Positions 10,891 to 49,820 of a DNA stretch of 49,820 nucleotides are shown here, in pieces. Made by a program: the position numbers and the translations under genes. Within the stretch, counting starts at the first letter, position 1. Every line of letters starts with the position of its first letter. The DNA is taken from the IMG/VR virus record IMGVR_UViG_3300014824_000003. One strand, written 5' to 3'. The notes beneath the pieces are model-generated. The model saw nothing but the letters and a program-made list of their open reading frames with translations, was not told where the DNA came from and ran no database searches. Origin of the DNA: a virus.

Positions 10891-10970
10891 CTAACTCTGA
10901 TAAACTCTGATTATCTCTGATTTACTCTGATAAACTCTGATTATCTCTGATTTACTCTGATAAACTCTGA
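10891..10970. repeat. tubC-like centromere: eight tandem 10-bp iterons NNNNCTCTGA (30-bp super-unit taaactctgattatctctgatttactctga)
   Basis: Read directly: ctaactctga taaactctga ttatctctga tttactctga, repeated. Confidence 0.85.
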
Positions 10971-11212
10971 TTTTTTGAAAGTAAATATTCAGGGATAGTC
11001 GGTTCGCCGCGTTCAGTTTTGATTTCTTCAAGGCTCTTTCCGTCCAGAAATGCCTTCTGATCCATCGAACCGCACGTCGGACATTCTGCTATACAGATAC
11101 ACGATAAAAAGACGTGTCCGCACTTGTTACATTTCATTTTCCAGAACGGATCCGTCACCCGTGTAATGCCGTCAGAATAATATCTTCTGGCGCTTGCGCC
11201 GATTCTTGACAT
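10952..11212 (-). CDS. Zinc-ribbon protein (86 aa)
   Basis: CNKCGH...CPTCGS. The last 6 codons are encoded by the iteron array. Confidence 0.55.
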   Translation of the reverse strand: MSRIGASARRYYSDGITRVTDPFWKMKCNKCGHVFLSCICIAECPTCGSMDQKAFLDGKSLEEIKTERGEPTIPEYLLSKNQSLSE

Positions 11213-13845: not shown

Positions 13846-13874
13846 AAGTACGGCCCCCTTTCTGTTGTTTTTTA

Positions 13875-13998
13875 GTTCGTCAACCGCTTCTGTTTGGTTG
13901 ATAAGCCAAGTATATATGTTTTATTTTGGTTTGTCAACCATTTTTACAAAAAATATAAAAATATTTTGGTTGACGAACCAAAGAAATAATGATATTAT
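13875..13998. promoter_or_regulatory. Immunity switch: divergent promoters with TTGGTT-N4-AACCAA-type operators
   Basis: Plus strand: TTGACG(13970)-17-TATTAT(13993). Minus strand: TTGACA(13937-13932)-17-TATACT(13914-13909). Palindromes at 13966-13981 (perfect), 13927-13940, 13894-13909 and 13875-13886 overlap the -35 boxes. Confidence 0.6.
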
Positions 13999-14027: not shown

Positions 14028-14486
14028 ATGAATGAAAGAATCCGTTGCTTACGCGAAGAAATAGGTCTTTCGCGCGCGGCTTTCGGTCAAAGAATAGGTG
14101 TAAGCGGCGACGTAATAAATAATTTAGAACGTGGTCGTGTAGAGATAAAAGAACCTATGATAAAACTTATCTGTTCCGAGTTTTCCATAAATGAAGAATG
14201 GTTAAGAACCGGATCCGGAGAAATGAAAGTAAAAAGTCCTTCTGATACTATGGATCAGTTAAAAAAGGAATTTAATCTTGACGATTTCAGTTATAATCTG
14301 GTTTACCAGTATTTGAAATTAGACGCCGATCAGCGTCAGACGGTAAGAGATTTCTTTTATAATGTGGTTGAATCAGGAAGTATGGACGAAGACTTGTTCG
14401 GTGATGTACCGAAAACGCCGGAAGAACTGGAAAAGGAATTTCCGCCGGTCGAAGAAAAACCGGTTCGGAATAAAGAAACGGGCTAG
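14028..14486 (+). CDS. CI-like XRE-family repressor
   Basis: HTH LSRAAFGQRIGVSGDVINNLERGR plus a C-terminal domain. SD AAAGGGGGTGA. Divergent from the early operon. Confidence 0.75.
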   Translation: MNERIRCLREEIGLSRAAFGQRIGVSGDVINNLERGRVEIKEPMIKLICSEFSINEEWLRTGSGEMKVKSPSDTMDQLKKEFNLDDFSYNLVYQYLKLDADQRQTVRDFFYNVVESGSMDEDLFGDVPKTPEELEKEFPPVEEKPVRNKETG

Positions 14487-15107: not shown

Positions 15108-15659
15108 ATGAAAAAGAAAGTGGTGATTTTTATGTCGATTCTGTCAATTTTTGCTGGTCTGACCGGTTGCGGCAAATCAAAAGAACCGGTCGAAAGCAAT
15201 AAGGAAAGTGAAGTTGTCAGTGAATCAGCCGTCCAAGAATCCGAGCAGACGGAAGAAGCAACCGAAGCGGCTCCGGAAGTTGAACATCGTACTGGTGACG
15301 CGATCGTCGGCGTAAGCGATAAAGATATTTCAGATCTTGATCCTGTATTCTGGAAAAGTGTTGTTAATGACGCAACCGGAAAGTGGCGCTATGCTACTAT
15401 TTCCGACGATGTAAATATTTCGGATTATGCGTTATCGTATTACAAGGAATATTTCAAGTCTGACGACGAAGTTCACGCAATTATAAACTTCGCCAATAAA
15501 ACAACAACGCGTATCAACTGTGGCGGTGATCGTCTTCTTATTAGCGTACTGGACTATGTAGACGGTGAAGAACATGACGCGAAGAAAATGTTCGGCGGAA
15601 CTCCGCTGGAATCTTATTGTGTTTACCTGGATAACGGGGATATTGAAAAGACGGAATAA
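15108..15659 (+). CDS. Lipoprotein (candidate superinfection-exclusion moron)
   Basis: Signal peptide with lipobox LSIFAGLTG-C. Lies between the repressor and the integrase. Confidence 0.7.
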   Translation: MKKKVVIFMSILSIFAGLTGCGKSKEPVESNKESEVVSESAVQESEQTEEATEAAPEVEHRTGDAIVGVSDKDISDLDPVFWKSVVNDATGKWRYATISDDVNISDYALSYYKEYFKSDDEVHAIINFANKTTTRINCGGDRLLISVLDYVDGEEHDAKKMFGGTPLESYCVYLDNGDIEKTE

Positions 15660-15683
15660 GGTATTTTGTAACCGAATAAAAAC

Positions 15684-15715
15684 AGCCGGTCAACGACTGC
15701 AATCATCGACCGGCT
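15684..15715 (+). terminator. Hairpin AGCCGGTC...GACCGGCT after the lipoprotein gene
   Basis: 8-bp stem, 16-nt loop, weak T tract. Confidence 0.4.
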
Positions 15716-15721
15716 TTAATA

Positions 15722-15835
15722 CCAGGCAACCGAAAAACGGCCTTCTGATATTGGAAATAAGCACCCTATATTATAGCAAAGAAGGCCGGAAAAATCAATC
15801 GGCTTTCTTTTTTATACCCTTTTTTCGGTGCCTGG
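15722..15835. repeat. Nested inverted repeats upstream of the serine recombinase gene (attP or regulatory candidate)
   Basis: Outer arms CCAGGCAACCGAAAAA (15722-15737) and TTTTTCGGTGCCTGG (15821-15835). Inner arms CGGCCTTCT (15738-15746) and AGAAGGCCG (15780-15788). Confidence 0.5.
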
Positions 15836-15850
15836 GGAAAGGGGCTATTT

Positions 15851-17857
15851 ATGGCATACGCCAAAGCGAAAAAACACCTGAAAATCTGGACGAAGAAAAA
15901 GGCGGCGTTATACGTCCGCGTTTCCACCAGATACCAGGTCGATAAAGACAGTCTTCCGTTCCAACGGAAGAAATTAAAAGAATATTGTAAATTTCTAGGG
16001 CTTGAAGATTATGTAATTTTTGAAGACGACGGATATTCAGCAAAGAACACGGAACGTCCGCACTTTCAAGAAATGATGTCACGCGTCAGATCCGGCGAAT
16101 TTTCACACCTGATCGTGTGGAAGGTGGATCGTGTTTCCCGAAATCTTCTGGACTTCGCGGCAATGTACCAGGAATTAAAAGATCACAAGGTCACGTTTAT
16201 TTCGATGAACGAACAGTTCGACACTTCAACCGCGATCGGTGAAGCTATGCTTAAAATCATTCTGATTTTTGCGGAACTTGAAAGAAACATGACGTCCGAA
16301 CGTGTAACCGGAATCATGCTGGATCGTGCCGAACAAGGATTGTGGAACGGCGCACGTATGCCGGTTGGTTATCGTTGGAACAACGAAACAAAGTTCCCTG
16401 AACCGGATCCGGAAGAAGTGAAGATCGTTCAACTTATCTTTGACAAATACGAAGAATGGAAATCAAGCATAAAAATAGCGCGATACCTGAATAACAACAA
16501 TTTCAAGTCAAAGCGCGGCGGCCAGTGGACTTCGAAGCTTATCCACGATATTATTCGGAATCCGTTCTATATCGGAACATACCGCTATAATCTGCGTGAA
16601 TCCGGGCGCGGCCCATTGAAGCCGGAAAGTGAATGGATCGTCCGTGAAAACAATCACCCGGCGATCATTGACAAGGCGCAATTTGACCGGTGCAATAAGA
16701 TCATGGATCAGAACGGATCCAGCCGCGACACGTCCGATCTACGCGCCAGGAAGTACGTTCACACATTTTCCGGACACCTGGTTTGTGGCAAGTGCGGCGC
16801 TAATATGATCGCGTCGAAGGATCGCGCCAGAGCGAACGGCTGGCGGCCGTCAATGTATCGTTGCGCCCAGCGTTCCCGAATGTTGGATTGCGACAATTCC
16901 AGGACGATAAATGAATCTTATATCGGGCCTTTTATATTTAATTATATCGCGAACCTTGCCAGGGTTCAGAAGAATTTTAAGAATATAACCACGGTTGAAA
17001 AGCTGGAAAGGGAACTTCTGAAAGGTGAAACGTTCGACGGTGTGGCCGGAATACTTCCGGAAGGCTTAAATTTGACCTTCCAGGCACTTTCTTTTCGTCA
17101 GGTAGGGAATGGAACCTATATTCCGGATGTTGACTTCCTGGGCGATTCTGACGGCGCCAGTGACCGCGATCAGATCGAATTGTTGAAGTCAGAAATCGAG
17201 AAGTCAAAAAATGCTGTCACCAGATTAACGGACGTTTATCTGTTCGATCCGGATTCCATGACGAAGGAAGAATTCGCCACAAAGAAAAAGGAACTGTCAA
17301 AGAAAATTGAAGGCATGGAACGCCAGCTTGCGGATCTTCTGGACGATTCCGGGAACGATGATCTGGCCGACATGTCATTTATCAAGAAGGCTTCCGCGTT
17401 CCTGGTGGCTCAAAGGATCGTTTCAAAATCCTTCGTCGATTATGTCGGCATGGCCCAGGAATTAGACAACGAAATCCTGAAAGACTTTATCGACCAGATC
17501 GTCGATCAGATCGTCGTCCTGGACGGCCGTGTCCAGTCAATCACGTTCATAAACGGATTAAAGCACGAATTCCGGTACGCAACGCCGGCGGAATTGCCAG
17601 TGTGTCAGAAATGCGGCGGACGTATCGGTTCAACGTGCGGCTGTCGGACAAGGACGTTCGATTTCTCCGGTAAGCGTTACCAGCGAATAAAAGTCGGTGA
17701 TCCGCGCGACACGCTTCACGGGAAGAAGAATCCGGTTTGTCCGGAATGTTTCGCCCATGAAGGGCGCTGGCACCATTGGAATTGCAAGATTGAAACGTGT
17801 CCGATCTGTGGCGGACGCCTGGCGGAATGTGAACACGGGCCGAATGGTAAGAAATAG
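15851..17857 (+). CDS. Large serine recombinase (integrase) with an extra C-terminal Cys/His-rich module
   Basis: Resolvase domain ALYVRVSTRYQ...DGYSAKNTERP...VWKVDRVSRN, recombinase domain, zinc ribbon CGKCG...C, coiled coil, then about 90 aa with 4 CxxC pairs. Confidence 0.85.
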   Translation: MAYAKAKKHLKIWTKKKAALYVRVSTRYQVDKDSLPFQRKKLKEYCKFLGLEDYVIFEDDGYSAKNTERPHFQEMMSRVRSGEFSHLIVWKVDRVSRNLLDFAAMYQELKDHKVTFISMNEQFDTSTAIGEAMLKIILIFAELERNMTSERVTGIMLDRAEQGLWNGARMPVGYRWNNETKFPEPDPEEVKIVQLIFDKYEEWKSSIKIARYLNNNNFKSKRGGQWTSKLIHDIIRNPFYIGTYRYNLRESGRGPLKPESEWIVRENNHPAIIDKAQFDRCNKIMDQNGSSRDTSDLRARKYVHTFSGHLVCGKCGANMIASKDRARANGWRPSMYRCAQRSRMLDCDNSRTINESYIGPFIFNYIANLARVQKNFKNITTVEKLERELLKGETFDGVAGILPEGLNLTFQALSFRQVGNGTYIPDVDFLGDSDGASDRDQIELLKSEIEKSKNAVTRLTDVYLFDPDSMTKEEFATKKKELSKKIEGMERQLADLLDDSGNDDLADMSFIKKASAFLVAQRIVSKSFVDYVGMAQELDNEILKDFIDQIVDQIVVLDGRVQSITFINGLKHEFRYATPAELPVCQKCGGRIGSTCGCRTRTFDFSGKRYQRIKVGDPRDTLHGKKNPVCPECFAHEGRWHHWNCKIETCPICGGRLAECEHGPNGKK

Positions 17858-17859
17858 CA

Positions 17860-17890
17860 CAAGGGGCGTTCTGCCCCTTGCTTTTGTTTT
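17860..17890 (+). terminator. Terminator CAAGGGGC-GTTCT-GCCCCTTG followed by a T-rich run
   Basis: 8-bp perfect stem followed by cttttgtttt. Confidence 0.65.
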
Positions 17891-17891
17891 A

Positions 17892-18035
17892 TTAACAATT
17901 CCCATTTACTACCGGTTTGACGATCTCATAATCAACGAATGTCTTCGCCATGATTTCGGCCAAATCCTTATCTATTCCCTGGCTGATTAAGTTTTCCTTA
18001 TATGCTTTCTTTGCTTTCTTCTCTGCTGTTGTCAT
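17892..18035 (-). CDS. Small protein (47 aa, MTTAEKKAKKAYKENLISQGIDKDLAEIMAKTFVDYEIVKPVVNGNC)
   Basis: Hand translation. Driven by promoter cassette copy A with SD AAGGAAAGGCGG. Confidence 0.5.
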   Translation of the reverse strand: MTTAEKKAKKAYKENLISQGIDKDLAEIMAKTFVDYEIVKPVVNGNC

Positions 18036-18048
18036 TTTTTATTTCCGC

Positions 18049-18098
18049 CTTTCCTTAACTTCTGATTATATTATACACTCTAAAGTGTAATATGTCAA
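18049..18098 (-). promoter_or_regulatory. Promoter-operator-leader cassette, copy A
   Basis: TTGACA-17-TATAAT with palindrome TACACT-N4-AGTGTA (18074-18089). 47/50 identical to copies B and C. Confidence 0.7.
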
Positions 18099-18140
18099 GT
18101 AATTCTATATATTTTATTTACAAATTTCACTTCAAAGTGA

Positions 18141-18169
18141 AAAAAGCCGCCATTTCTGGCGACTTTTTT
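18141..18169. terminator. Bidirectional terminator hairpin GCCGCC-ATTTCT-GGCGAC flanked by A6 and T6
   Basis: Read directly; ends the 20337-18168 minus-strand operon. Confidence 0.6.
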
Positions 18170-18719
18170 ATTTGAAATATCCGCGTTCGACCTTTGATTT
18201 CAGGAATTCGTTTATTTGCGGCGTTTTGTAACCGGAAGAAATACGTTCTTCGCAATATGCCATAATGTCAAGGGCGGTTTTTTTATAAGTCGATCGGATC
18301 TGTTCTTCTGTTGCGTATTCGTCCCGAATGTATCTTGTCATAAAAAGCACAATGTCTGTATGGCAACAAGGACAAGTTGAGTATGGCTTGACCTTTGTTA
18401 TATCGTCGTGGCCGAACGGGCCGATCTCGTATTTTGATACATCTATCGACATTTTCCCGGTTCTGTTTGTGTAAATGACGGAAACTTTCCAGCCGAAAAC
18501 GATTTCTTCATCGTCCGAAGTTTCGAATTCTTCAACAACGCAATTATGTATTTCTGCGTATAATTCCGCCTTTCTTTTATCTCGGAATACGCCCAAAATC
18601 GAAGCGTCGTAAGGATCGCCTGGAACAACAATATAAACCTTTATAGTTTCATAATTCGATGGATTTTTATAAACACCTGGAATATATTTGTTTTCTTTAT
18701 TTACCATATCTTCGGCCAC
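18168..18719 (-). CDS. Hypothetical protein (183 aa)
   Basis: ORF track. Confidence 0.55.
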   Translation of the reverse strand: MAEDMVNKENKYIPGVYKNPSNYETIKVYIVVPGDPYDASILGVFRDKRKAELYAEIHNCVVEEFETSDDEEIVFGWKVSVIYTNRTGKMSIDVSKYEIGPFGHDDITKVKPYSTCPCCHTDIVLFMTRYIRDEYATEEQIRSTYKKTALDIMAYCEERISSGYKTPQINEFLKSKVERGYFK

Positions 18720-18970
18720 ACTTCCCCGGCAATCGGAACGCCTTCGGTGTGCCTTTCGATGTAAGCTTCACGATTGCGCGCTTCTATGTTTCCAGCGGAA
18801 GTATAGTTGAAATCAGCGTCGAATTCAGTTCCGCAAGCGATACATTCCCAGGAAGCCGTTGTGTCTGGCCCTTGATAGAATCCGGCCGATCGAAGGGCCG
18901 CGCCTTTTCTTTTCAAGATCACCATTCCGCCGCATAGTGGACATTTCTTTTTGTCATATAATGCCGACAT
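18701..18970 (-). CDS. Zinc-ribbon protein (89 aa)
   Basis: CPLCGG...CIACG. Confidence 0.55.
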   Translation of the reverse strand: MSALYDKKKCPLCGGMVILKRKGAALRSAGFYQGPDTTASWECIACGTEFDADFNYTSAGNIEARNREAYIERHTEGVPIAGEVWPKIW

Positions 18971-19245
18971 TATTCTTCACCTTCTTCGTAGTAATAGCGA
19001 TCGTGAATTTGCGAAATGGTTATGTCGCTATTTTGTGGAACAGTCACGGTCAAATCACAATCCGTCATAAAATCTTCATTAGTGCAAGTAATAAATCCAC
19101 ATTCCATAGATCCAGCGTCTTCCTTTCGCTTCCTTCGCTCTGTCAGATCACCGTTTCTTTTTATTCCGTATATGTTCGTGTATTGACATAACATATTATA
19201 TTCCAACTTTCCGCCACATATCGGACATTTATTAAGAATCTTCAT
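18970..19245 (-). CDS. Zinc-ribbon protein (91 aa)
   Basis: CPICGG...C...C. SD AAAGGGAAAGTGA. Confidence 0.55.
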   Translation of the reverse strand: MKILNKCPICGGKLEYNMLCQYTNIYGIKRNGDLTERRKRKEDAGSMECGFITCTNEDFMTDCDLTVTVPQNSDITISQIHDRYYYEEGEE

Positions 19246-19537
19246 TCACTTTCCCTTTCTTCAAAAGTTTTTTATATCTTCTGGAAGTTTTCAGAATTTC
19301 ACATTCAAGTTCCGGATCCCACCATCTATTATCCGGGCGGAACTCACATTCATTACACGGCCATTCGTTGGATCCGTTTTTCAATCCAGGGCAACCGCGA
19401 CATTCGATTATCATTCCACTTGAATTTATTTCTGGTTGAATAAGGAAGTTAATAATAACCGCTACGATAAATATAATAAATATGGCAATCGGGGCGCCAA
19501 TGATAACGCCGGCAATAATCAAAATCGTTTTTATCAT
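19232..19537 (-). CDS. Membrane-anchored Cys-rich protein (101 aa)
   Basis: TM helix ILIIAGVIIGAPIAIFIIFIVAVIINFLI followed by CRGCPG...CNEC. SD TAAGGCGGTGG. Confidence 0.55.
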   Translation of the reverse strand: MIKTILIIAGVIIGAPIAIFIIFIVAVIINFLIQPEINSSGMIIECRGCPGLKNGSNEWPCNECEFRPDNRWWDPELECEILKTSRRYKKLLKKGKVNEDS

Positions 19538-19549
19538 AGTTCCACCGCC

Positions 19550-19831
19550 TTAATGCCTGGATATTTCCCAGGGTTCGGAAGTATATCGATTTATGAAGTC
19601 GTTTACATTCTTCGCGTATTCTTCCAGTATCTCTTTTGATTCTTCGATTGCTCCAGGAAGTGATTCGGCTTTAAGCTTTTGGCCGTCAATTTGAAGCTGG
19701 GCGCACGATAGGAACCAGCCGTCCAGGTGAATAATTCTGTGGATCGTGACCGTGATTCCGTTCGTCGTTGTGTAGAATATTGTTCCGGTTTCAACCGGCT
19801 TTCTATAGCTTGAATTACTGATAAATTTCAT
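19550..19831 (-). CDS. Hypothetical protein (93 aa)
   Basis: ORF track; SD GGAAAGGAAAA. Confidence 0.5.
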   Translation of the reverse strand: MKFISNSSYRKPVETGTIFYTTTNGITVTIHRIIHLDGWFLSCAQLQIDGQKLKAESLPGAIEESKEILEEYAKNVNDFINRYTSEPWEISRH

Positions 19832-19870
19832 GTTTTCCTTTCCGGGAAAAGCCTTGAATTTACAAGAAGA

Positions 19871-20095
19871 TTACAACGTCTTTTTTACTCGCACGATAGG
19901 ACACCCGAAAGTTTGAGTAAAAAAGGTCATGGGACGTCCCAGTTCTTCGGATTTTTTCTTTACCCAGGAACGGGCTTTCGCCATAAAATAGAACTGTCTG
20001 TTCGGCTCAAATTCCGGTGCTGGCTTGCTTATGTCTACGGTGTCAAGATCTAAGTCTTTCAGATTGTCTATATATCGTAAATCTATTAAATTCAT
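19871..20095 (-). CDS. Hypothetical protein (74 aa)
   Basis: ORF track; SD GAAAGGGAAA. Confidence 0.5.
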   Translation of the reverse strand: MNLIDLRYIDNLKDLDLDTVDISKPAPEFEPNRQFYFMAKARSWVKKKSEELGRPMTFFTQTFGCPIVRVKKTL

Positions 20096-20118
20096 GTTAT
20101 TTCCCTTTCGATTTGATT

Positions 20119-20337
20119 TTAGAATTCTTCGCCGGATTCCTTATCCACGAAAATGATCTTAAATTCGCAATTAAGGAATTCCGCGATCTGTGACAATTCC
20201 GATTCCTTGAAATCGTCACGTTTTAATTTGTTCGAAAAGTTCTGGCGCGTCTGCCCCGTCCCTTCTGCGACTTCTCCCATTGTTACGCCGCGACGTCCAA
20301 CAATCAGGCGGATCTTTTCGGCTGTTGTCATTCCCAC
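20119..20337 (-). CDS. Small HTH regulator (Cro/Aca-like), divergent from cassette B
   Basis: 72 aa with HTH-like VTMGEVAEGTGQTRQNFSNKLKR. Its own promoter overlaps a TACACT half-palindrome. Confidence 0.55.
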   Translation of the reverse strand: MGMTTAEKIRLIVGRRGVTMGEVAEGTGQTRQNFSNKLKRDDFKESELSQIAEFLNCEFKIIFVDKESGEEF

Positions 20338-20369
20338 GAAAACACCTTCTTTCTTAAATTGATATATGT

Positions 20370-20398
20370 ATTTTACATTTTACACTTTATAATGTCAA
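20370..20398 (-). promoter_or_regulatory. Promoter of the HTH operon (TTGACA-17-TAAAAT) overlapping a degenerate operator
   Basis: Minus strand has TTGACA at 20398-20393 and TAAAAT at 20375-20370. The site TACACTttatAATGTC lies at 20381-20396. Confidence 0.55.
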
Positions 20399-20445
20399 GT
20401 TGAAATAAATATTTTATTTTTTAATTGTTTTCTTTACATTATATA

Positions 20446-20495
20446 TTGACATATTACACTATAAAGTGTATAATGTAATCAGAAGTTAAGGAAAG
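20446..20495 (+). promoter_or_regulatory. Promoter-operator-leader cassette, copy B
   Basis: TTGACA(20446)-17-TATAAT(20469), palindrome TACACTataaAGTGTA at 20455-20470. 50/50 identical to copy C. Confidence 0.7.
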
Positions 20496-20508
20496 TGAGG
20501 AATTAAAA

Positions 20509-20958
20509 ATGTTAGATAAGAACGGAAAAGAAATGGTAACTGGTTGTGTGGTAGAAATCAAAAACGCATACTTCAAAACAGATAACGGACTTTACTTCAT
20601 TGAAAAGTCGCCGGAAGAACTCGGCTGGCTCGGAAGTGATTATTGTCTTCTTAAATTAAAAAGAAACGGTCAGTTAAGCACCGCAAAGAAAAATATTTGT
20701 TTCTGGCCGATTATGTCATTCGTAAGTGATCGAATGAAATCCATTGAAGCCAACGCCTGGAATAAAGAACATGCGACAATCGAAGTCAGAACAGACATTG
20801 ATCGCCAGTATATCAAGGAATACTTCAAGGAAGAAGCCGAACGTCTGGATCCGATGATCGAACACATGAAATATAATTTCGGTGAAGATCACCCGGAAAC
20901 AATTAAACAGATAAAGCTTCGCGATCATCGAATGGAAGTCAGCGATTCAATCCAGTAA
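20509..20958 (+). CDS. Hypothetical protein (149 aa)
   Basis: ORF track; SD AAGTGAGGAAT. Confidence 0.6.
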   Translation: MLDKNGKEMVTGCVVEIKNAYFKTDNGLYFIEKSPEELGWLGSDYCLLKLKRNGQLSTAKKNICFWPIMSFVSDRMKSIEANAWNKEHATIEVRTDIDRQYIKEYFKEEAERLDPMIEHMKYNFGEDHPETIKQIKLRDHRMEVSDSIQ

Positions 20959-20963
20959 ATGAA

Positions 20964-20987
20964 GGGCGGCCAGTGCGCCGCCTTTTA
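20964..20987 (+). terminator. Terminator GGCGGC-cagtgc-GCCGCC followed by TTTT
   Basis: Read directly. Confidence 0.6.
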
Positions 20988-21053
20988 TACACTTTATAAT
21001 GTAATATAGAAATAATATTTTTACATTTTTATTATTTTCCTTTACATTTTTAC

Positions 21054-21103
21054 TTGACATATTACACTATAAAGTGTATAATGTAATCAGAAGTTAAGGA
21101 AAG
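21054..21103 (+). promoter_or_regulatory. Promoter-operator-leader cassette, copy C
   Basis: TTGACA(21054)-17-TATAAT(21077), palindrome at 21063-21078. An upstream half-site TACACTttatAATGTA lies at 20988-21003. Confidence 0.7.
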
Positions 21104-21116
21104 GCGGTAAATAAAA

Positions 21117-21341
21117 ATGACGAAATTTGAAATCGGAAAAACTTATTCAATGCGTAGTATCTGCGATCATGATTGTGTGTGGACTTACACCGTAACAGCC
21201 AGAACGGCGAAGACAATCACCATTTCGGACGGTGAAAAGGTTCAGAAGTGCCGGATCATCAAGGCGGCTTCTGAATACAGAAACGCCGAAACCGTATATC
21301 CACTGGGCCAGTATTCAATGGCCCCGGCATTAACAGCATAA
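21117..21341 (+). CDS. Hypothetical protein (74 aa)
   Basis: ORF track; SD AAGGAAAGGCGG. Confidence 0.6.
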   Translation: MTKFEIGKTYSMRSICDHDCVWTYTVTARTAKTITISDGEKVQKCRIIKAASEYRNAETVYPLGQYSMAPALTA

Positions 21342-21389
21342 TATTTTTTAAGCCGGCGGCCTGGCGCCGCTGGTGGAAAGGTTAAGTAT

Positions 21390-21794
21390 ATGAGAAGAAA
21401 ATATAATAGAGAACAAAAAGAGTATATCGAAACGAAGAAAGCCCTGGAAGCGTTGGAAGCCAGGGAAAAGGAAATGGAAGCCGCTTTCGTGAAAAGCCTG
21501 GGTGTTGTAAACGAAGACGGAACGGTTCCTTCTCGCACATGGGCGATTGATGATGATTCGATCGCGGATCAGGCAATCGACGACTTCGGCGCACTCGTTG
21601 AAGACTGCGGACTGTGGGCGGAATTATGCAAGGCGAAGGAAGAATTTCAGGCGGCGGAAGAAAAACTTGTGAATTACGCGATTTCGCTTGTGCCTTGTAG
21701 GCGTGAACGTGAAATCTTAACAACTTCGGCTTCTAACTTGAAATACCGGATCAAGATCATAGAAACGGTTATGAAGTTCGATTCAACACTTTAA
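21390..21794 (+). CDS. Hypothetical acidic protein (134 aa)
   Basis: ORF track. Confidence 0.55.
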   Translation: MRRKYNREQKEYIETKKALEALEAREKEMEAAFVKSLGVVNEDGTVPSRTWAIDDDSIADQAIDDFGALVEDCGLWAELCKAKEEFQAAEEKLVNYAISLVPCRREREILTTSASNLKYRIKIIETVMKFDSTL

Positions 21795-21831
21795 CATTTG
21801 CGGCGGCTCCGGCCGCCAGGAAGGAAAGACA

Positions 21832-22062
21832 ATGGAAGAATGGAAAGAAGCTCTTGAAGCGGCTGTGAATAAAACAATAGGCGCCTGGAATAAGGCAAGT
21901 GAAGCCTTCTTATCTCACAATCAGAAAGGTTTTGAACACTGGCACAACGAATTTAATAGATATGTGGAAACTTTTTCACATGCGATCGGAATTCCGGAAG
22001 AAGATTTTATTTCTTACTTGGAAGAAAAAGGACTGTATAGAACAGAAAAGAAAGGTGAATGA
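21832..22062 (+). CDS. Hypothetical protein (76 aa)
   Basis: ORF track; SD AGGAAGGAAAG. Confidence 0.55.
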   Translation: MEEWKEALEAAVNKTIGAWNKASEAFLSHNQKGFEHWHNEFNRYVETFSHAIGIPEEDFISYLEEKGLYRTEKKGE

Positions 22063-22316
22063 ATATGTATAAGAATTATTTCGATGAATTAAAGGTTAGG
22101 CTTTTTGAATCTTGTGATTGGTGCAATAAACAAGCGAACGACGGAGATCGGAACCGAAATCATGTGAACTATGGTTCTGCTTCTGCTATCGCCCGGATCA
22201 TGACGGATTTCGGCCACAACGTACACATTCCAGTCTGGGACGACAACGGATTCCTTCGGATTCCGAAAATTGTAATTGACGGCGAAGTGTTTATTGATTT
22301 TGAAAAATCAGAGTAA
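22059..22316 (+). CDS. Hypothetical protein (85 aa); the last codons run into iteron array 2
   Basis: ORF track; ATGA-type overlap with the upstream gene. Confidence 0.55.
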   Translation: MNMYKNYFDELKVRLFESCDWCNKQANDGDRNRNHVNYGSASAIARIMTDFGHNVHIPVWDDNGFLRIPKIVIDGEVFIDFEKSE

Positions 22317-22367
22317 ATCAGAGATAATCAGAGTTTATCAGAACAAATCAGAATATATCAGAAATAA
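22308..22367. repeat. Second centromere-like iteron array, inverted relative to 10891-10970
   Basis: tcagagtaaa tcagagataa tcagagttta is the exact reverse complement of the 30-bp super-unit of array 1. Three degenerate TCAGAA units follow. Confidence 0.85.
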
Positions 22368-22373
22368 AAAGAA

Positions 22374-22414
22374 CCCACACAAGCCCCGTAAATCGGTTTT
22401 ACTGCTTGCGTGGG
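22374..22414. terminator. Long hairpin CCCACACAAGC...GCTTGCGTGGG; the T run is better on the minus strand
   Basis: 11-bp stem with one mismatch and a 19-nt loop. The minus strand continues TTCTTTTTATTTC. Confidence 0.5.
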
Positions 22415-22606
22415 TATTTCTTCGTCAAAAATCATTTAGGGCGAAATCCGGGCAAATCCGGAAGCCTGGCGGCCATTTTACGACCGATTATCCAGGTGGA
22501 TTTTCAGAAGAATTTTGTTCCCCCCTTAAACCCCCTTCCCTCTGCGCCATTGTATCACATATTTTCTAAACTGTAAAGTGTATTTTGTAAATTATATCAC
22601 TTACAA

Positions 22607-23797
22607 TTAACACATTTTGTTTACAAGCGCCTGAATGGTTGCGTAATTGTAACCGGCGGCTTCAAGCTTTGCCTTTCTCTGTGGGTTATTTCCCCATTTT
22701 CCGGCCAGAACTTCCTTCGCGATTTCCTCGTTGGATTTCTTCGCCGGTGCGGCTTTCTGATTAACGATCGCCTGGATCGCGTTGTAATCGTAGCCAGCGG
22801 CGGAAAGTCTGTTCTTTCTGTCATCACCATTTCCCCAGGCTCCAGCCAGAACTTCCTTCGCGATTTCCTCGTTGGATTTCTTCGCCGGTGTGGCTTTCTG
22901 ATTAACAATCGCCTGGATCGCGTTGTAATCGTAGCCAGCGGCGGAAAGTCTGTTCTTTCTGTCATCACCATTTCCCCAGGCTCCAGCCAGAACCTCGTTC
23001 GCGATTTCCTCGTTAGATTTCTTCGCTGGTGCCGGTGTGGCTTTCTGATTAACAATCGCCTGGATCGCGTTGTAATCATAACCGGCGGCGGAAAGTCTAT
23101 TCTTTCTGTCGTCGCCATTTCCCCATTTTCCGGCCAGAACTTCCTTCGCGATTTCCTCGTTGGACTTCTTCGGCTGTGCCGGTGCTGGCTTTGATCCGCC
23201 CAGTTCTGCCGGAAAATCTCTGTAACAAATATTCATGTCAAGTCCGGAAGATCCGATTCCGTCACATGATCCCTTGCTGGTGTACTGCCAAATATCGAAG
23301 TTTGAAACGTTCGGCTTGTTTCCAGGCTGTCCGTTGTTTACTCCGTACTTTGCAACCCATTTTGTGTATGAATCAACGCCCACCAGGTAGTTATTCCACC
23401 AGTTTTCGTTAGCATACACGCCAGGCATGTAACCAGCGGCCTTCACGGCTTCACAAAAGACTTTTACAACGTCCTTCGCAATTCCGGACTGGCTGGCTTC
23501 CTCAACGTCGATATAAAGCGGATAACTAAGCTTGTAGCCTTTCACCAGACGAAGCGCGTGATCTGCTTCTGATTTTGCCATATCTGTATTTTTTGCGTAA
23601 GAATACAGATAAACGCCGAACGGAATCCCTAGTCTGGAACACTCGTCGGCGTTTCTCTTGAACATTTTGTCGTCCTGGCTTTCAATGTCGGAACCATAGC
23701 CGCAACGCATAAGCACGCCGCCGATTCCAGACGCCTTTACCTTGTCCCAGTCAATAACGCCATTATGAACTGATACGTCAATCATTTTTACTTCCAT
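22607..23797 (-). CDS. Endolysin: GH25 muramidase plus four CW_7 cell-wall-binding repeats (Cpl-7-like)
   Basis: N-terminus IDVSVHNGVIDWDKVK...DIWQYTS resembles GH25. Four copies of KKSNEEIAKEVLAGxWGNGDDRKNRLSAAGYDYNAIQAIVNQKA. ATG 23797 follows SD AGTGAGGAA. Confidence 0.85.
   Translation of the reverse strand: MEVKMIDVSVHNGVIDWDKVKASGIGGVLMRCGYGSDIESQDDKMFKRNADECSRLGIPFGVYLYSYAKNTDMAKSEADHALRLVKGYKLSYPLYIDVEEASQSGIAKDVVKVFCEAVKAAGYMPGVYANENWWNNYLVGVDSYTKWVAKYGVNNGQPGNKPNVSNFDIWQYTSKGSCDGIGSSGLDMNICYRDFPAELGGSKPAPAQPKKSNEEIAKEVLAGKWGNGDDRKNRLSAAGYDYNAIQAIVNQKATPAPAKKSNEEIANEVLAGAWGNGDDRKNRLSAAGYDYNAIQAIVNQKATPAKKSNEEIAKEVLAGAWGNGDDRKNRLSAAGYDYNAIQAIVNQKAAPAKKSNEEIAKEVLAGKWGNNPQRKAKLEAAGYNYATIQALVNKMC
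22610..23170. repeat. Four tandem 141-147 bp repeats encoding the CW_7 modules (three are near-identical)
   Basis: The protein repeats R1-R3 differ at only a few residues. Confidence 0.85.
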
Positions 23798-23801
23798 GAT
23801 A

Positions 23802-24032
23802 TTATTCCTCACTTTCTACTTCCGGAATACCGGCAACACTTGTTAAAATGCTTACAACGCCAGAAACTACGGCGGAAGATACGACGATCTTCCAGTCTAC
23901 GGCGGCTACAACGGTGCTTGTGCCGATCACCGCAACGGCTGTCTGTGCCATTGTTTTAACGGCGCGAATAGCCGCTTTCTTTGCCCATTCCTTTGTGTTT
24001 ACTGACGCTTTCAAAACTGAATTCTTAAACAT
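23802..24032 (-). CDS. Holin (LL-H/phi LC3-like)
   Basis: 76 aa with two hydrophobic helices and a charged C-terminus PEVESEE. Directly upstream of the endolysin. Confidence 0.7.
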   Translation of the reverse strand: MFKNSVLKASVNTKEWAKKAAIRAVKTMAQTAVAVIGTSTVVAAVDWKIVVSSAVVSGVVSILTSVAGIPEVESEE

Positions 24033-24051
24033 AGTCTTCTTTGCTCCTTTC

Positions 24052-24315
24052 TTACATTCCGACGCCTGATCGAATTAACGTGAATAAAATCCCGACCGCC
24101 GCTGTGATGATTGCCGCGACGACTGTTCGGAAAAGCCATTTGTTCGATTCTTCCAGGCTGTCAACCTTTGTTGTTGCATCTTCAAGATCGTTCTGGATCC
24201 GAAGAATCGCTTTCTCGTTCTCGTATGTTTTCACCTTTGCGTTGTTGTAGCCGTCAAGCTTTTCTTCGATCTTGATAAGGCGATCGAGAACTTCTCTTTC
24301 AAATTCTGCTTCCAT
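24052..24315 (-). CDS. xhlA: XhlA-like hemolysin/lysis accessory protein
   Basis: Coiled-coil N-terminus plus a C-terminal TM helix WLFRTVVAAIITAAVGILFTLI. Precedes the holin. Confidence 0.6.
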   Translation of the reverse strand: MEAEFEREVLDRLIKIEEKLDGYNNAKVKTYENEKAILRIQNDLEDATTKVDSLEESNKWLFRTVVAAIITAAVGILFTLIRSGVGM

Positions 24316-24372
24316 CGGCGAACCCCCTTTCCCTGAAAATAGACAATTAAAAATAGCCGGGATAATTCCCGA

Positions 24373-25509
24373 CTATGAATTGTTGCGAATACGAAAAGAA
24401 AATTCGTCAATGATTTTTCTTAAAAGATTTCCGGCCGTGAAATGCTGGATCAGGCCGAAATAGCTTTGCATTGTGTTATTAAGTTTTTGAAAACCTATTT
24501 CGCAAGCTTCAAAAAGCTTTTTAATGAACTTTATCCGGCGGAACATACGCTTTCGCGTGCTTTTCCTCATTCGGATAAATTTCGGTGAAATCTGCGCCCC
24601 TACGAACGTGACCGGAAGCCACGCCGGGCGAATACTGGTTTTATTATTTAGTTCCAGGTGAAGGCGTTCTTCCAGGAAGTTTTTTATATTATCCAGGATT
24701 CCCTTCAATTCCTCTTTATCCGGCCACAAGATAATAATGTCGTCCACGTATCGAATAAACAGATGGATTCCAAGTTCGTGTTTACAGTATTGATCTAATT
24801 CGTTTAGATAGATATTCGCGAACATCTGGCTTGTAAGGTTTCCGATTGGCATACCGCGATCAAAAAGCCAGTCTTCTTCGTTGCAAAGTTCCGGTTGCAC
24901 GCCAGCCGGAAGGCCGAACGCCGTATTTTCACAATTTATCAGTTTGTAAAGGTCGCGAAGAATTTCTTCGTCCTTGATTTTTCGTGATAATATATCCATC
25001 AAAACCGCGTGATCCACGCGATAGAAATATTTTGAAATGTCAAGCTTTAACACGTACCAGGTTTTTCCACTTCGATTCACTTTTCGAAGCCAGCGTTGAA
25101 GCTGATCGCGCGCTTTTGTTGTGCCTTTCCCTTGTCTACAACCGTAACTGTGCGTTATAAACTGCTTATCGAATAACGGGTTTAAGATCTGGTAATAGGC
25201 CCATTGAACAACGCGATCCGGATATTCCAGCGCCATAATAATTCGCGGCTTCGGTTCGTAAATCTGTTTCTTCCGGTATCGTCCGACTTTGTATGAAGAT
25301 TCTGTTTTTCCGGGAATCTGGTTCCCTTCTTCGTCAAAAACCGGATAATAAGTAAGTCGATTAAGTAAATCAATGATCCCTTCTTCCCTATGTGCCGAAA
25401 ACTTCAAATTTTCGTCGCGGTAGTGTTTACATTGCGAAGCGTTTTTGTCAGCTTCAAGAATATTTTCAAAATTGACAATATCGCTATGCTTTACATCAAA
25501 GGTCTTCAT
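24373..25509 (-). CDS. DGR reverse transcriptase
   Basis: YVDD catalytic box (IRYVDDIIIL) and the DGR-type motif PIGNLTSQMFANIYL. ATG 25509 follows SD AAAGGAAT. The track ORF starts at TTG 25515. Confidence 0.9.
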   Translation of the reverse strand: MKTFDVKHSDIVNFENILEADKNASQCKHYRDENLKFSAHREEGIIDLLNRLTYYPVFDEEGNQIPGKTESSYKVGRYRKKQIYEPKPRIIMALEYPDRVVQWAYYQILNPLFDKQFITHSYGCRQGKGTTKARDQLQRWLRKVNRSGKTWYVLKLDISKYFYRVDHAVLMDILSRKIKDEEILRDLYKLINCENTAFGLPAGVQPELCNEEDWLFDRGMPIGNLTSQMFANIYLNELDQYCKHELGIHLFIRYVDDIIILWPDKEELKGILDNIKNFLEERLHLELNNKTSIRPAWLPVTFVGAQISPKFIRMRKSTRKRMFRRIKFIKKLFEACEIGFQKLNNTMQSYFGLIQHFTAGNLLRKIIDEFSFRIRNNS

Positions 25510-27932: not shown

Positions 27933-28423
27933 TAGTACAATCCGCCTTTCACATGAAATTTAATAGTTACATTTTTCGCGCTTCCAAGATAGGAAGCCTT
28001 GAAAGCGTTCAGGGCCTTTCCGTACACTTCGACGTGTTCGACCGGGCCGTCCGCTTCTACAATTTCCGCTTCGACCTGATATTCAGTGTTATTCACCATC
28101 TGCGGAAGTGGAATTGTCGCTTCTGCATTTGTCGCCGGAAATTTAAGCGTATTCTTCAAAGTGGACGTGATGATCTGGCCACGCAAGTCGTCAATGTAAT
28201 TGTGCGCCAGGCGAACATTCATAGCCAGATAAGCGCCCAGAAGTGCGTTTTCCACGTTTCCGAAATCCATATTTCCGAAATTAGTCGAAGACTGCTGGGT
28301 TCCTTTCTGGCTGATTTCGCCAGGATCCGGCGCCCACTCTTTGATTCCATTTCCAAGATCTGTTACACGAACCCTTCTAGGGTGTTCAACAATTCGATCT
28401 TGCCAGAATACCGGTATATACAT
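27932..28423 (-). CDS. Hypothetical tail fibre/baseplate-distal protein (163 aa)
   Basis: ORF track; SD GGAAGGAGTG. Position follows the gpI-like gene. Confidence 0.5.
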   Translation of the reverse strand: MYIPVFWQDRIVEHPRRVRVTDLGNGIKEWAPDPGEISQKGTQQSSTNFGNMDFGNVENALLGAYLAMNVRLAHNYIDDLRGQIITSTLKNTLKFPATNAEATIPLPQMVNNTEYQVEAEIVEADGPVEHVEVYGKALNAFKASYLGSAKNVTIKFHVKGGLY

Positions 28424-49260: not shown

Positions 49261-49820
49261 CTATCTCTTGCCCTTGCCATGCTTGAAGGTCAGGCTCTTA
49301 ATCAGCTTATCTTTGTTGTCCTGGTTGATACCAATGTATCGAAGGGTGACGCTTATGTCTGCATGGTTGAATATCTCCATCAGTGTAACCGCGTCGTGTG
49401 TCTGCTGGTACATGTGATAGCCGAATGTCTTTCGTAGTGTGTGCGTGCCTATTGCTTCCAGGCCGAACACCTTCGCCGCGTCAGTCAGTACGTTGTACGC
49501 TTGCTGTCTGGTGATAGGCTTATTCGGGTATCGTGGCGATTTGAATAGATATTCATAATCTCTTTTGCCAGCGATATATTCTTCGATGATAGGTTTCAGT
49601 TCGGAATTTATCGGGAATCTTTTTTCCTTCCCGGTTTTTTTCTCCCTGATATAAACAGCGTCTTTTTCCCGGACGTCACGAATTCGGAATTTTAAAATAT
49701 CCGAAATTCTAAGCCCGGTATAAATACCAAACATAAAAAGAACATAATCACGTTCATTATTCGATTTTAGGTATTCGGCCAAATCCATCACAAGATCCAT
49801 GTCCCTGATCGGTTCGACCG
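49261..49820 (-). CDS. Small tyrosine recombinase (catalytic domain only, 188 aa in full); the 5' end continues across the circular junction (see 1-134)
   Basis: GLRISD (Arg I), HTLRKTF (His-x-x-Arg), NHADISVTLRYI (catalytic Tyr). No N-terminal core-binding domain. Confidence 0.8.
   Translation of the reverse strand, partial: VEPIRDMDLVMDLAEYLKSNNERDYVLFMFGIYTGLRISDILKFRIRDVREKDAVYIREKKTGKEKRFPINSELKPIIEEYIAGKRDYEYLFKSPRYPNKPITRQQAYNVLTDAAKVFGLEAIGTHTLRKTFGYHMYQQTHDAVTLMEIFNHADISVTLRYIGINQDNKDKLIKSLTFKHGKGKR
49694..49820. repeat. Terminal direct repeat, second copy of 1-127
   Basis: Identical string. Confidence 0.9.

Follow-up and report, generated by a model that had tools for sequence, protein, structure and literature searches.

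The window analysed here, the whole 49,820-nucleotide (nt) stretch of the IMG/VR virus record IMGVR_UViG_3300014824_000003, is the circular genome (49.7 kb; bases 1-127 are identical to 49694-49820) of a temperate gut-Clostridia phage. Between its integrase and endolysin genes lies a region of three promoter cassettes that share a palindromic operator, next to a divergent gene for a 72-amino-acid (aa) protein of the helix-turn-helix (HTH) type. We consider it probable, judging from the arrangement and conservation of the sites, that this protein is a trans-acting, autoregulated repressor which times a burst of accessory-gene expression at DNA entry. What this phage adds is an integration site inside the operon of this repressor, which would take over the host gene miaB in the lysogen. 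The design itself is already known from anti-CRISPR and plasmid establishment genes, and thus the system is regarded as a new, widespread family member and not as a new kind.

Promoter-operator cassettes

The cassettes and the elements around them are arranged as follows.

18036-18098, minus strand: cassette 1, with promoter, leader and Shine-Dalgarno (SD) sequence (-35 box 18098-18093, -10 box 18075-18070, main operator 18074-18089)
18126-18141: auxiliary operator of cassette 1 (sequence TTCACTTCAAAGTGAA; distance to the main operator 52 bp), just past the terminator of the HTH operon
18148-18161: terminator of the minus-strand HTH operon, a hairpin with T runs flanking both sides
20370-20398, minus strand: promoter of the HTH operon, TTGACA-17-TAAAAT, whose -35 box is covered by a weak operator (20381-20396)
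20446-20508, plus strand: cassette 2, with consensus promoter, leader and SD sequence (main operator 20455-20470, 74 bp from 20381)
20965-20982, plus strand: terminator hairpin behind the 149-aa gene
20988-21003: auxiliary operator of cassette 3 (sequence TACACTTTATAATGTA; distance to the main operator 75 bp)
21054-21116, plus strand: cassette 3, with consensus promoter, leader and SD sequence (main operator 21063-21078)

An earlier note on this DNA had described a 50-nt block that is identical at two positions and recurs in a third, inverted copy, each block being read as a consensus sigma-70-type promoter. Both descriptions are borne out: the blocks at 20446-20495 and 21054-21103 agree in 50 out of 50 positions, the reverse complement of 18049-18098 matches the block in 47 out of 50, and all three promoters are complete (12/12) matches to TTGACA-17-TATAAT, with no others of this quality in 15500-24500. 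The search proposed there, for TACACTNNNNAGTGTA with up to two mismatches, returned eight sites in the window versus 0.62 expected, a number attained by none of 100 shuffles. Perfect TACACT-N4-AGTGTA sites start at 18074, 20455, and 21063, weaker ones at 18126, 20381, 20988, and 22567, and the site at 28023 is probably due to chance. The degenerate copies at 20381-20396 and 20988-21003 were placed correctly, but the one reported near 22571-22586 is in fact located at 22567-22582. With a weight matrix trained solely on relatives whose HTH protein is less than 95% identical, and with the best of 20 shuffles (18.7 bits) as threshold, the strong sites across the window are solely those at 21063 and 20455 (26.1 bits each), 18074 (23.8 bits), 20988 (22.7 bits), and 20381 (21.7 bits).

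The order of elements in a unit is a preceding terminator, a weaker palindrome, an AT-rich stretch, the -35 box, the perfect palindrome and a short leader with the SD sequence. The perfect palindrome spans spacer position 4 to the first two bases of the -10 box. Measured between centres, the weaker palindrome is separated from the perfect one by 74 bp in cassette 2, 75 bp in cassette 3, and 52 bp in cassette 1, which corresponds to 7, 7, and 5 helical turns, respectively. In case of the related loci L011, L016, and L022, a better copy of the auxiliary operator of cassette 1, TTCACTTTATAGTGTA, occurs at a distance of 53 bp. The weak site on the promoter of the HTH gene reads GACATT-ATAA-AGTGTA on the minus strand and is situated, as had been claimed, over the -35 box of that gene's own promoter.

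Segment 20378-20511 is duplicated at 20985-21119, and the copy has lost the -35 box of the divergent promoter; the auxiliary operator of cassette 3 is a relic of this duplicated promoter. Due to the recent duplication of the unit, the leader is identical within the window, and to this extent the shared leader described before is real, but in diverged relatives the leader drifts while promoter and palindrome are kept. In detail, in phages with an HTH protein of 64-66% and a 149-aa protein of 46-49% identity, the promoter and the palindrome arms are unchanged, whereas the central four nucleotides of the palindrome (ATAA, TTAG, TTAA, TTAT, ATAT) as well as the leader vary. A further idea, that the leader is a conserved RNA element or a TubR site, was raised by the resemblance of GTAATCAGAAG in the leader to one unit of the ATCAGAG iterons of this phage. 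Since diverged relatives keep the iterons and not the leader sequence, this likeness is taken as chance or as a consequence of recent duplication.

The clear duplication of 20378-20511 at 20985-21119, together with a leader that is identical solely among close relatives, might suggest that the repeats play no part in regulation and merely record a recent duplication or serve as a recombination substrate. This explanation is extremely improbable in view of promoter and palindrome arms that are fixed where the flanking DNA has diverged, and of a placement with respect to the two promoter boxes (-35 and -10) and a spacing of 73-75 bp that are kept across families. Furthermore, all relatives seen share a collinear gene order, and none shows an inversion between cassettes.

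The 72-aa HTH protein and its link to the palindrome

Two HTH-type regulators of the phage come into consideration at the palindrome, and both had been named as candidate binders in the earlier note.

20119-20337, minus strand: gene of the 72-aa protein of the XRE/Cro-C1 type, the proposed repressor
14028-14486, plus strand: gene of the CI-like repressor

The 72-aa protein matches the Pfam family HTH_26 (PF13443) with 25.7 bits (cut-off 22) and phrog_4583, annotated as 'transcriptional repressor', with an E value of 6.8e-7. Its AlphaFold2 model has a mean predicted local distance difference test score (pLDDT) of 93.7 and comprises four helices and a C-terminal beta hairpin. The nearest PDB folds are those of ClgR, DdrO, HipB, SinR, C.BclI, and HigA2, all dimeric operator-binding repressors; template modelling (TM) scores to ClgR, DdrO, HipB, SinR, and P22 C2 range from 0.63 to 0.70. 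The likeness of the modelled fold to HipB and HigA2 is generic: the gene downstream is a 5' fragment of miaB, and a co-transcribed toxin gene, as for antitoxins of the HipB/HigA type, is not present. Neither does the protein belong to a CI/Cro-type immunity switch, as the phage has a separate CI gene with its own operators and the TACACT sites are confined to 18074-22582. With regard to membership in Aca1-14, a PDB profile search found nothing.

A scan that covered each species with one genome turned up relatives of the 72-aa protein in 98 genomes of Clostridia. Among the 75 distinct upstream regions of these genomes, 70 carry an ACAC-N6-GTGT site at -165 to -20 of the HTH start, where the density of sites is 12.2 per kb versus 0.24 per kb elsewhere in the same loci; in 47 of the 75, two such sites are spaced by 73-75 bp. 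This linkage extends to phages of a different type, which carry Ku, LigD, or DnaD genes. In these loci (L023-L025) the HTH gene is the sole gene in common with the window within 4 kb, and again the divergent promoter carries a perfect site and the HTH promoter a weak one (GACATT-N4-AGTGTA), with 74 bp between the two sites. A further link to the site is seen in the recognition helix, which does not vary among the relatives.

As CI is likewise an XRE-type HTH protein, it could be argued that the palindrome is bound by CI, by some other DNA-binding protein of the phage or by a regulator of the host, and that the HTH gene is merely adjacent. We regard this as very unlikely. The CI switch (13868-13988) contains four TTGGTT-N4-6-AACCAA sites, e.g., TTGGTTGATAAGCCAA and TTGGTTGACGAACCAA, and no TACACT site, and since CI has operators of its own it was dismissed as an unlikely binder. 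A host regulon was ruled out because the nearest host genome shows no enrichment of the palindrome: all three perfect copies there are located in prophage, and one-mismatch copies outside prophage number four versus about 4.5 in a reversed-pattern control. By contrast, the site accompanies the HTH gene into unrelated phage backbones and other bacterial families in which no further gene of the window is shared. Thus, of the two candidates of the earlier note, the comparative linkage favours the 72-aa protein, which on these grounds is most likely the regulator at the palindrome.

From the sites, their geometry and conservation, the linkage to the HTH gene, the integration site, and the miaB fusion, all of which can be read from the DNA, we infer binding, repression, timing, looping, and cargo function as follows. 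As a dimer acting in trans, the 72-aa protein would serve as a dedicated repressor and bind [T/G]ACACT-N4-AGTGT[A/C]. Since the perfect site is placed behind the -35 box and reaches into the start of the -10 box, the bound repressor would exclude RNA polymerase from the cargo promoters. Placed 52/53 or 74/75 bp (5 or 7 helical turns) further upstream, the weaker site probably supports cooperative binding, with looping between sites that share one face of the helix. As the weaker site of the divergent region overlaps the -35 box of the promoter for the repressor itself, the cargo promoters are expected to close first and the own promoter only at a higher repressor concentration. When phage DNA enters a repressor-free cell, the consensus promoters would fire at once and be silenced as repressor accumulates; in a lysogen the cassettes would stay off, including those of a superinfecting relative.

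The proposed design has a close precedent in Reg576 of the Bacillus pumilus plasmid p576 (Val-Calvo et al. 2018, PMC6294495), where one small repressor controls four promoters including its own and those of establishment genes such as ardC, and where differing operator configurations with cooperative binding give differing sensitivities and a window of expression after transfer. Similar to Reg576, the same operator occurs here at the cargo promoters (18074, 20455, and 21063) and at the repressor's own promoter (20381). Unlike the present XRE-type HTH protein of a temperate phage, known from sequence alone and associated with a palindrome, Reg576 is a ribbon-helix-helix protein of a conjugative plasmid with direct TTATCCC repeats. 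For Aca repressors it was reported that one regulator can control several neighbouring operons (Feussner et al. 2026, PMC13551039). A small HTH protein, inverted repeats in strong promoters of small phage genes, apparent autoregulation, and several nearby operons resemble the Aca systems. In contrast to these, the HTH gene does not follow an acr gene but stands first in a divergent operon of its own, and no known acr was recognised among the cargo, which matches no annotated family.

A third comparison concerns the controller (C) proteins of restriction-modification systems, which in case of C.BclI and C.Esp1396I act on adjacent C-boxes with activation preceding repression. Size and fold are similar, a palindrome is present at the own promoter, and a role in timing after entry into a new host would be analogous. 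C.BclI and C.Esp1396I are among the nearest folds (TM score 0.65), a small protein is encoded at a promoter with two operators, and one HTH relative adjoins a methyltransferase and an HNH nuclease gene, so that the 72-aa protein might be conceived as switching, with rising concentration, from activating to repressing its own operon and as acting on the cargo promoters only secondarily. This is quite unlikely, as the promoters already have the consensus sequence and need no activator, the operators are 73-75 bp apart, unlike adjacent C-boxes, the sites overlap core promoter elements, and the window contains no restriction enzyme gene.

Integration within the operon of the proposed repressor

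The integration site is located within the cassette region, directly downstream of the HTH gene.

15851-17857, plus strand: gene of the large serine integrase
19871-20095, minus strand: phage-borne 5' end of miaB, a 74-aa open reading frame (ORF) in the free phage
19883-19924: attP of the large serine integrase, with 10-bp inverted arms TTTTTTACTC / GAGTAAAAAA around the crossover

The crossover falls into GACA (19900-19903), the centre of a perfect 10-bp inverted repeat, a layout typical of the attP of serine integrases. A close relative of the phage is integrated in genome G001, and both its attL and attR junctions are within the cassette region: contig C1 tracks the window to about 19903 and continues with host DNA, and contig C59 starts with host DNA and continues with window sequence from about 19900. 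Joined to each other, the host flanks yield an intact miaB 5' end, and the same genus includes at least 12 genomes in which the joined flanks align unbroken and which thus represent empty sites. The same two junction types were observed at proviral ends in IMG/VR (L014 for one; L017 and L020 for the other). Nested inverted repeats upstream of the integrase gene (15722-15835) had been considered as attP and were rejected, as the junctions in G001 and the empty sites place it at 19883-19924. Phage Shimadzu integrates inside its own int gene and is uninformative as a model for the cassette module.

On contig C59, the phage-borne miaB 5' end is fused in frame to the host miaB body, resulting in a protein of 500 aa which scores 517 bits against the MiaB equivalog model TIGR01574 (cut-off 355; locus L010). 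The phage-borne part is 54% identical to the displaced host N-terminus, and at the other junction the displaced host 5' end (...LTCCINTFGC) stops after three phage codons. Eleven of the genomes found carry a full-length miaB gene directly behind that of the HTH protein. The 74-aa ORF behind the HTH gene was therefore discarded as a cargo gene, being the phage copy of the host miaB 5' end that contains attP.

Due to the position of attP, integration splits the cassette region, which for the purpose of annotation is not one block in the prophage: cassette 1 resides at the integrase end, and the HTH gene with cassettes 2 and 3 at the lysin end about 47 kb away. Because of this distance to cassette 1, the repressor must act in trans. 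Judging from gene order, the repressor promoter would drive the HTH gene together with the rebuilt miaB in the lysogen, and the five accessory genes at 19831-18168 would lose the HTH promoter and come to lie behind the host miaB promoter. If true, in this miaB-integrating lineage the host miaB joins the phage regulon and the five accessory genes are handed to the host promoter, so that a housekeeping tRNA-modification gene would be put under the promoter of a phage repressor in every lysogen. Like prophages that rebuild their target by duplicating the end of a tRNA gene or an ORF, this phage carries a copy of the end of its target gene, which is left intact. Unlike in these cases, the 5' end is replaced, which places the host gene behind a phage promoter and phage genes behind a host promoter, and the recombinase is a large serine recombinase.

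Several observations weigh against a repressor that silences the cassettes after entry. The recognition helix QTRQN(F/L)SNK (QTRQNFSNK in the 72-aa protein) is invariant among relatives, but this invariance is partly built in, as the genome loci were recruited by a peptide pattern containing the recognition helix, and with helix and site both invariant the result is co-occurrence without covariation. On score alone the weak sites at 22567 (16.4 bits) and 18126 (11.5 bits) are within the range of chance; both keep their position in relatives. For the proteins of 47, 149, 74, 134, 76, and 85 aa, nothing above threshold was obtained from Pfam, PHROGs, PADLOC, NCBIfam, and PDB sequences. Genes between the lysin gene and the att site at a prophage end are classically morons expressed in lysogeny. 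If miaB depends on the repressor promoter, this promoter would need to be fairly active in lysogens, which would fit autoregulation.

The cassettes could accordingly be read as lysogeny-expressed morons that serve superinfection exclusion, defence, or host fitness, with the HTH protein merely trimming their level or releasing them on a signal. Besides the classic moron position between lysin gene and att, the own promoter and terminator of each unit are in favour of this, as is an HTH operon built for expression in the lysogen, given that it carries the rebuilt miaB. A perfect operator on every cargo promoter and a repressor made in the lysogen, however, predict silence, a ligand-sensing domain would not fit into the 72-aa protein, the PADLOC defence models match no cargo protein, and related cargo sets resemble establishment genes (ArdC-N, methyltransferase). 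We therefore consider the moron explanation unlikely, albeit the most serious competitor, and prefer a repressor that confines cargo expression to the time of entry.

Cargo genes and neighbouring features

The ORFs of the region, including that of the HTH protein, are as the earlier note had described them, and the cargo genes of 47, 149, 74, 134, 76, and 85 aa are distributed over the cassettes as follows.

17892-18035, minus strand: 47-aa cargo gene of cassette 1
18168-19831, minus strand: five accessory genes (183, 89, 91, 101, and 93 aa), downstream of the HTH gene and the miaB 5' end in the free phage
20509-20958, plus strand: 149-aa cargo protein (p149) of cassette 2
21117-22316, plus strand: cargo operon of cassette 3 (74, 134, 76, and 85 aa), kept in relatives

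Relatives of the 47-aa protein with 79-100% aa identity are found behind the same promoter in L009, L011, L014, L016, and L022. p149 belongs to a large, nameless family of 99 homologue clusters, none of which contains a Pfam domain. The AlphaFold2 model of p149 (pLDDT 93.5) combines an SH3-like barrel with a helical hairpin and has no structural neighbour in the PDB; its single match in BFVD is a homologous domain that is fused to a DUF3560 protein in one virus. The 74-aa family (p74) recurs as the first cargo beside HTH relatives. In the cassette 3 operon, GC-rich hairpins that lack T runs occur in the gap between the 74- and 134-aa genes (21345-21385) and in that between the 134- and 76-aa genes (21795-21830), and may be RNA-stability or processing elements.

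A homologue of p74 was also observed in the cultured Clostridium phage Saumur (L108 2700-2960, ON453901.1), where it is divergent from an annotated Arc-like repressor, with three TATACTTCCGTAA-like repeats over the promoters. Hence p74-type cargo is also combined with another small repressor and another operator.

The first divergent gene beside HTH relatives is highly variable and encodes p149, p74, an ArdC-N-like protein (22.7 bits versus a cut-off of 22.6), an amidoligase, a HIRAN protein, a RecD-like helicase, or a C5 methyltransferase with an HNH protein. By analogy, this repertoire would fit the establishment or anti-defence genes that mobile elements typically carry. In case of L023, a phage carrying Ku and LigD, the genes of the C5 DNA methyltransferase and the HNH nuclease (837-2219 and 312-671) are in an operon divergent from the HTH relative. 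Because the design corresponds to that of Aca-controlled anti-CRISPR operons and of the establishment genes under Reg576, the small cargo proteins of the window most likely serve entry or establishment functions by analogy. In the earlier note the cassettes had been compared to immediate-early, anti-defence units with an Aca-like repressor. Promoter-operator cassettes with an apparently autorepressed logic agree with this, but as no cargo protein matches an entry of Pfam, PHROG, PADLOC, NCBIfam, or PDB, the anti-defence role is a guess.

With due reserve, the 72-aa protein might even be the founding member of an undescribed Aca/Reg576-like regulator family in mobile elements of gut Clostridia (Lachnospiraceae, Oscillospiraceae, and others), in which the operator pair tags entry or anti-defence genes of unknown identity and, at miaB, promoters are exchanged reciprocally. 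If this tentative proposal were true, a pair of ACAC-N6-GTGT sites 74-75 bp apart would be a searchable tag for the p149, p74, and p47 families, ArdC-N-like proteins, and others. Since they are small and lack homologues, the anti-defence and establishment genes of gut-Clostridia phages are almost unknown, and a regulator with a fixed, searchable operator would allow gene discovery by association, as Aca did for anti-CRISPRs. Cultured carriers are available with Anaerocolumna xylanovorans DSM 12503, Blautia glucerasea MSK.18.94, Jutongia huaianensis NSJ-37, and Lachnospiraceae bacterium COE1.

Among the accessory proteins, the 183-aa one is a DUF7336 protein, the 101-aa one has a transmembrane helix, and the 89-aa one gives weak, below-cut-off matches to Lar-like zinc ribbons. 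The accessory gene set of G001 differs from that of the window. In the G001 prophage (L009 12458-12982, G001:C1), the homologue of the 101-aa membrane protein is lengthened to 174 aa, and the extension is a repeat sharing 55-65% identity with the cell-wall-binding repeats at the C-terminus of the endolysin.

The weak site at 22567-22582 belongs to a possible fourth target, which is followed by a candidate RNA.

22549-22582, minus strand: possible fourth regulated promoter, TTTACA-17-TACAAT with a TG-extended -10 box and the one-mismatch site 22567-22582 over its -35 box
22375-22542, minus strand: putative non-coding RNA, about 165 nt long, whose end is a strong terminator (22374-22414) beside the second iteron array

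In 23 distinct loci, which come from several lineages of Lachnospiraceae, promoter and site are retained along with AGGGGGU..UAAAGGGGG, a twin G-run motif at the 5' end of the candidate RNA; the block GAAAUACCCAC of the RNA is conserved there as well. The fold z-score of the candidate RNA is -3.35. Rfam matches were found neither in the window nor in a separate search of 22250-22650, and no consensus structure or covariation was found for the candidate RNA.

Outside the cassette region, the genome is laid out as follows.

13637 to 390, minus strand: early genes
10896-10983 and 22298-22372: inverted ATCAGAG iteron arrays
Minus strand, with the endolysin gene (at 22607) as the last: late and lysis genes

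In the viral record G002 (L002, G002:C1), window sequence 24247->22307 on the lysin side is joined straight to 10916->12461. This is the junction expected from an inversion of the 11.4-kb segment between the two inverted iteron arrays, and it could represent either a real inversion or an assembly artefact at an inverted repeat. G001 and the window share the orientation opposite to that in G002.

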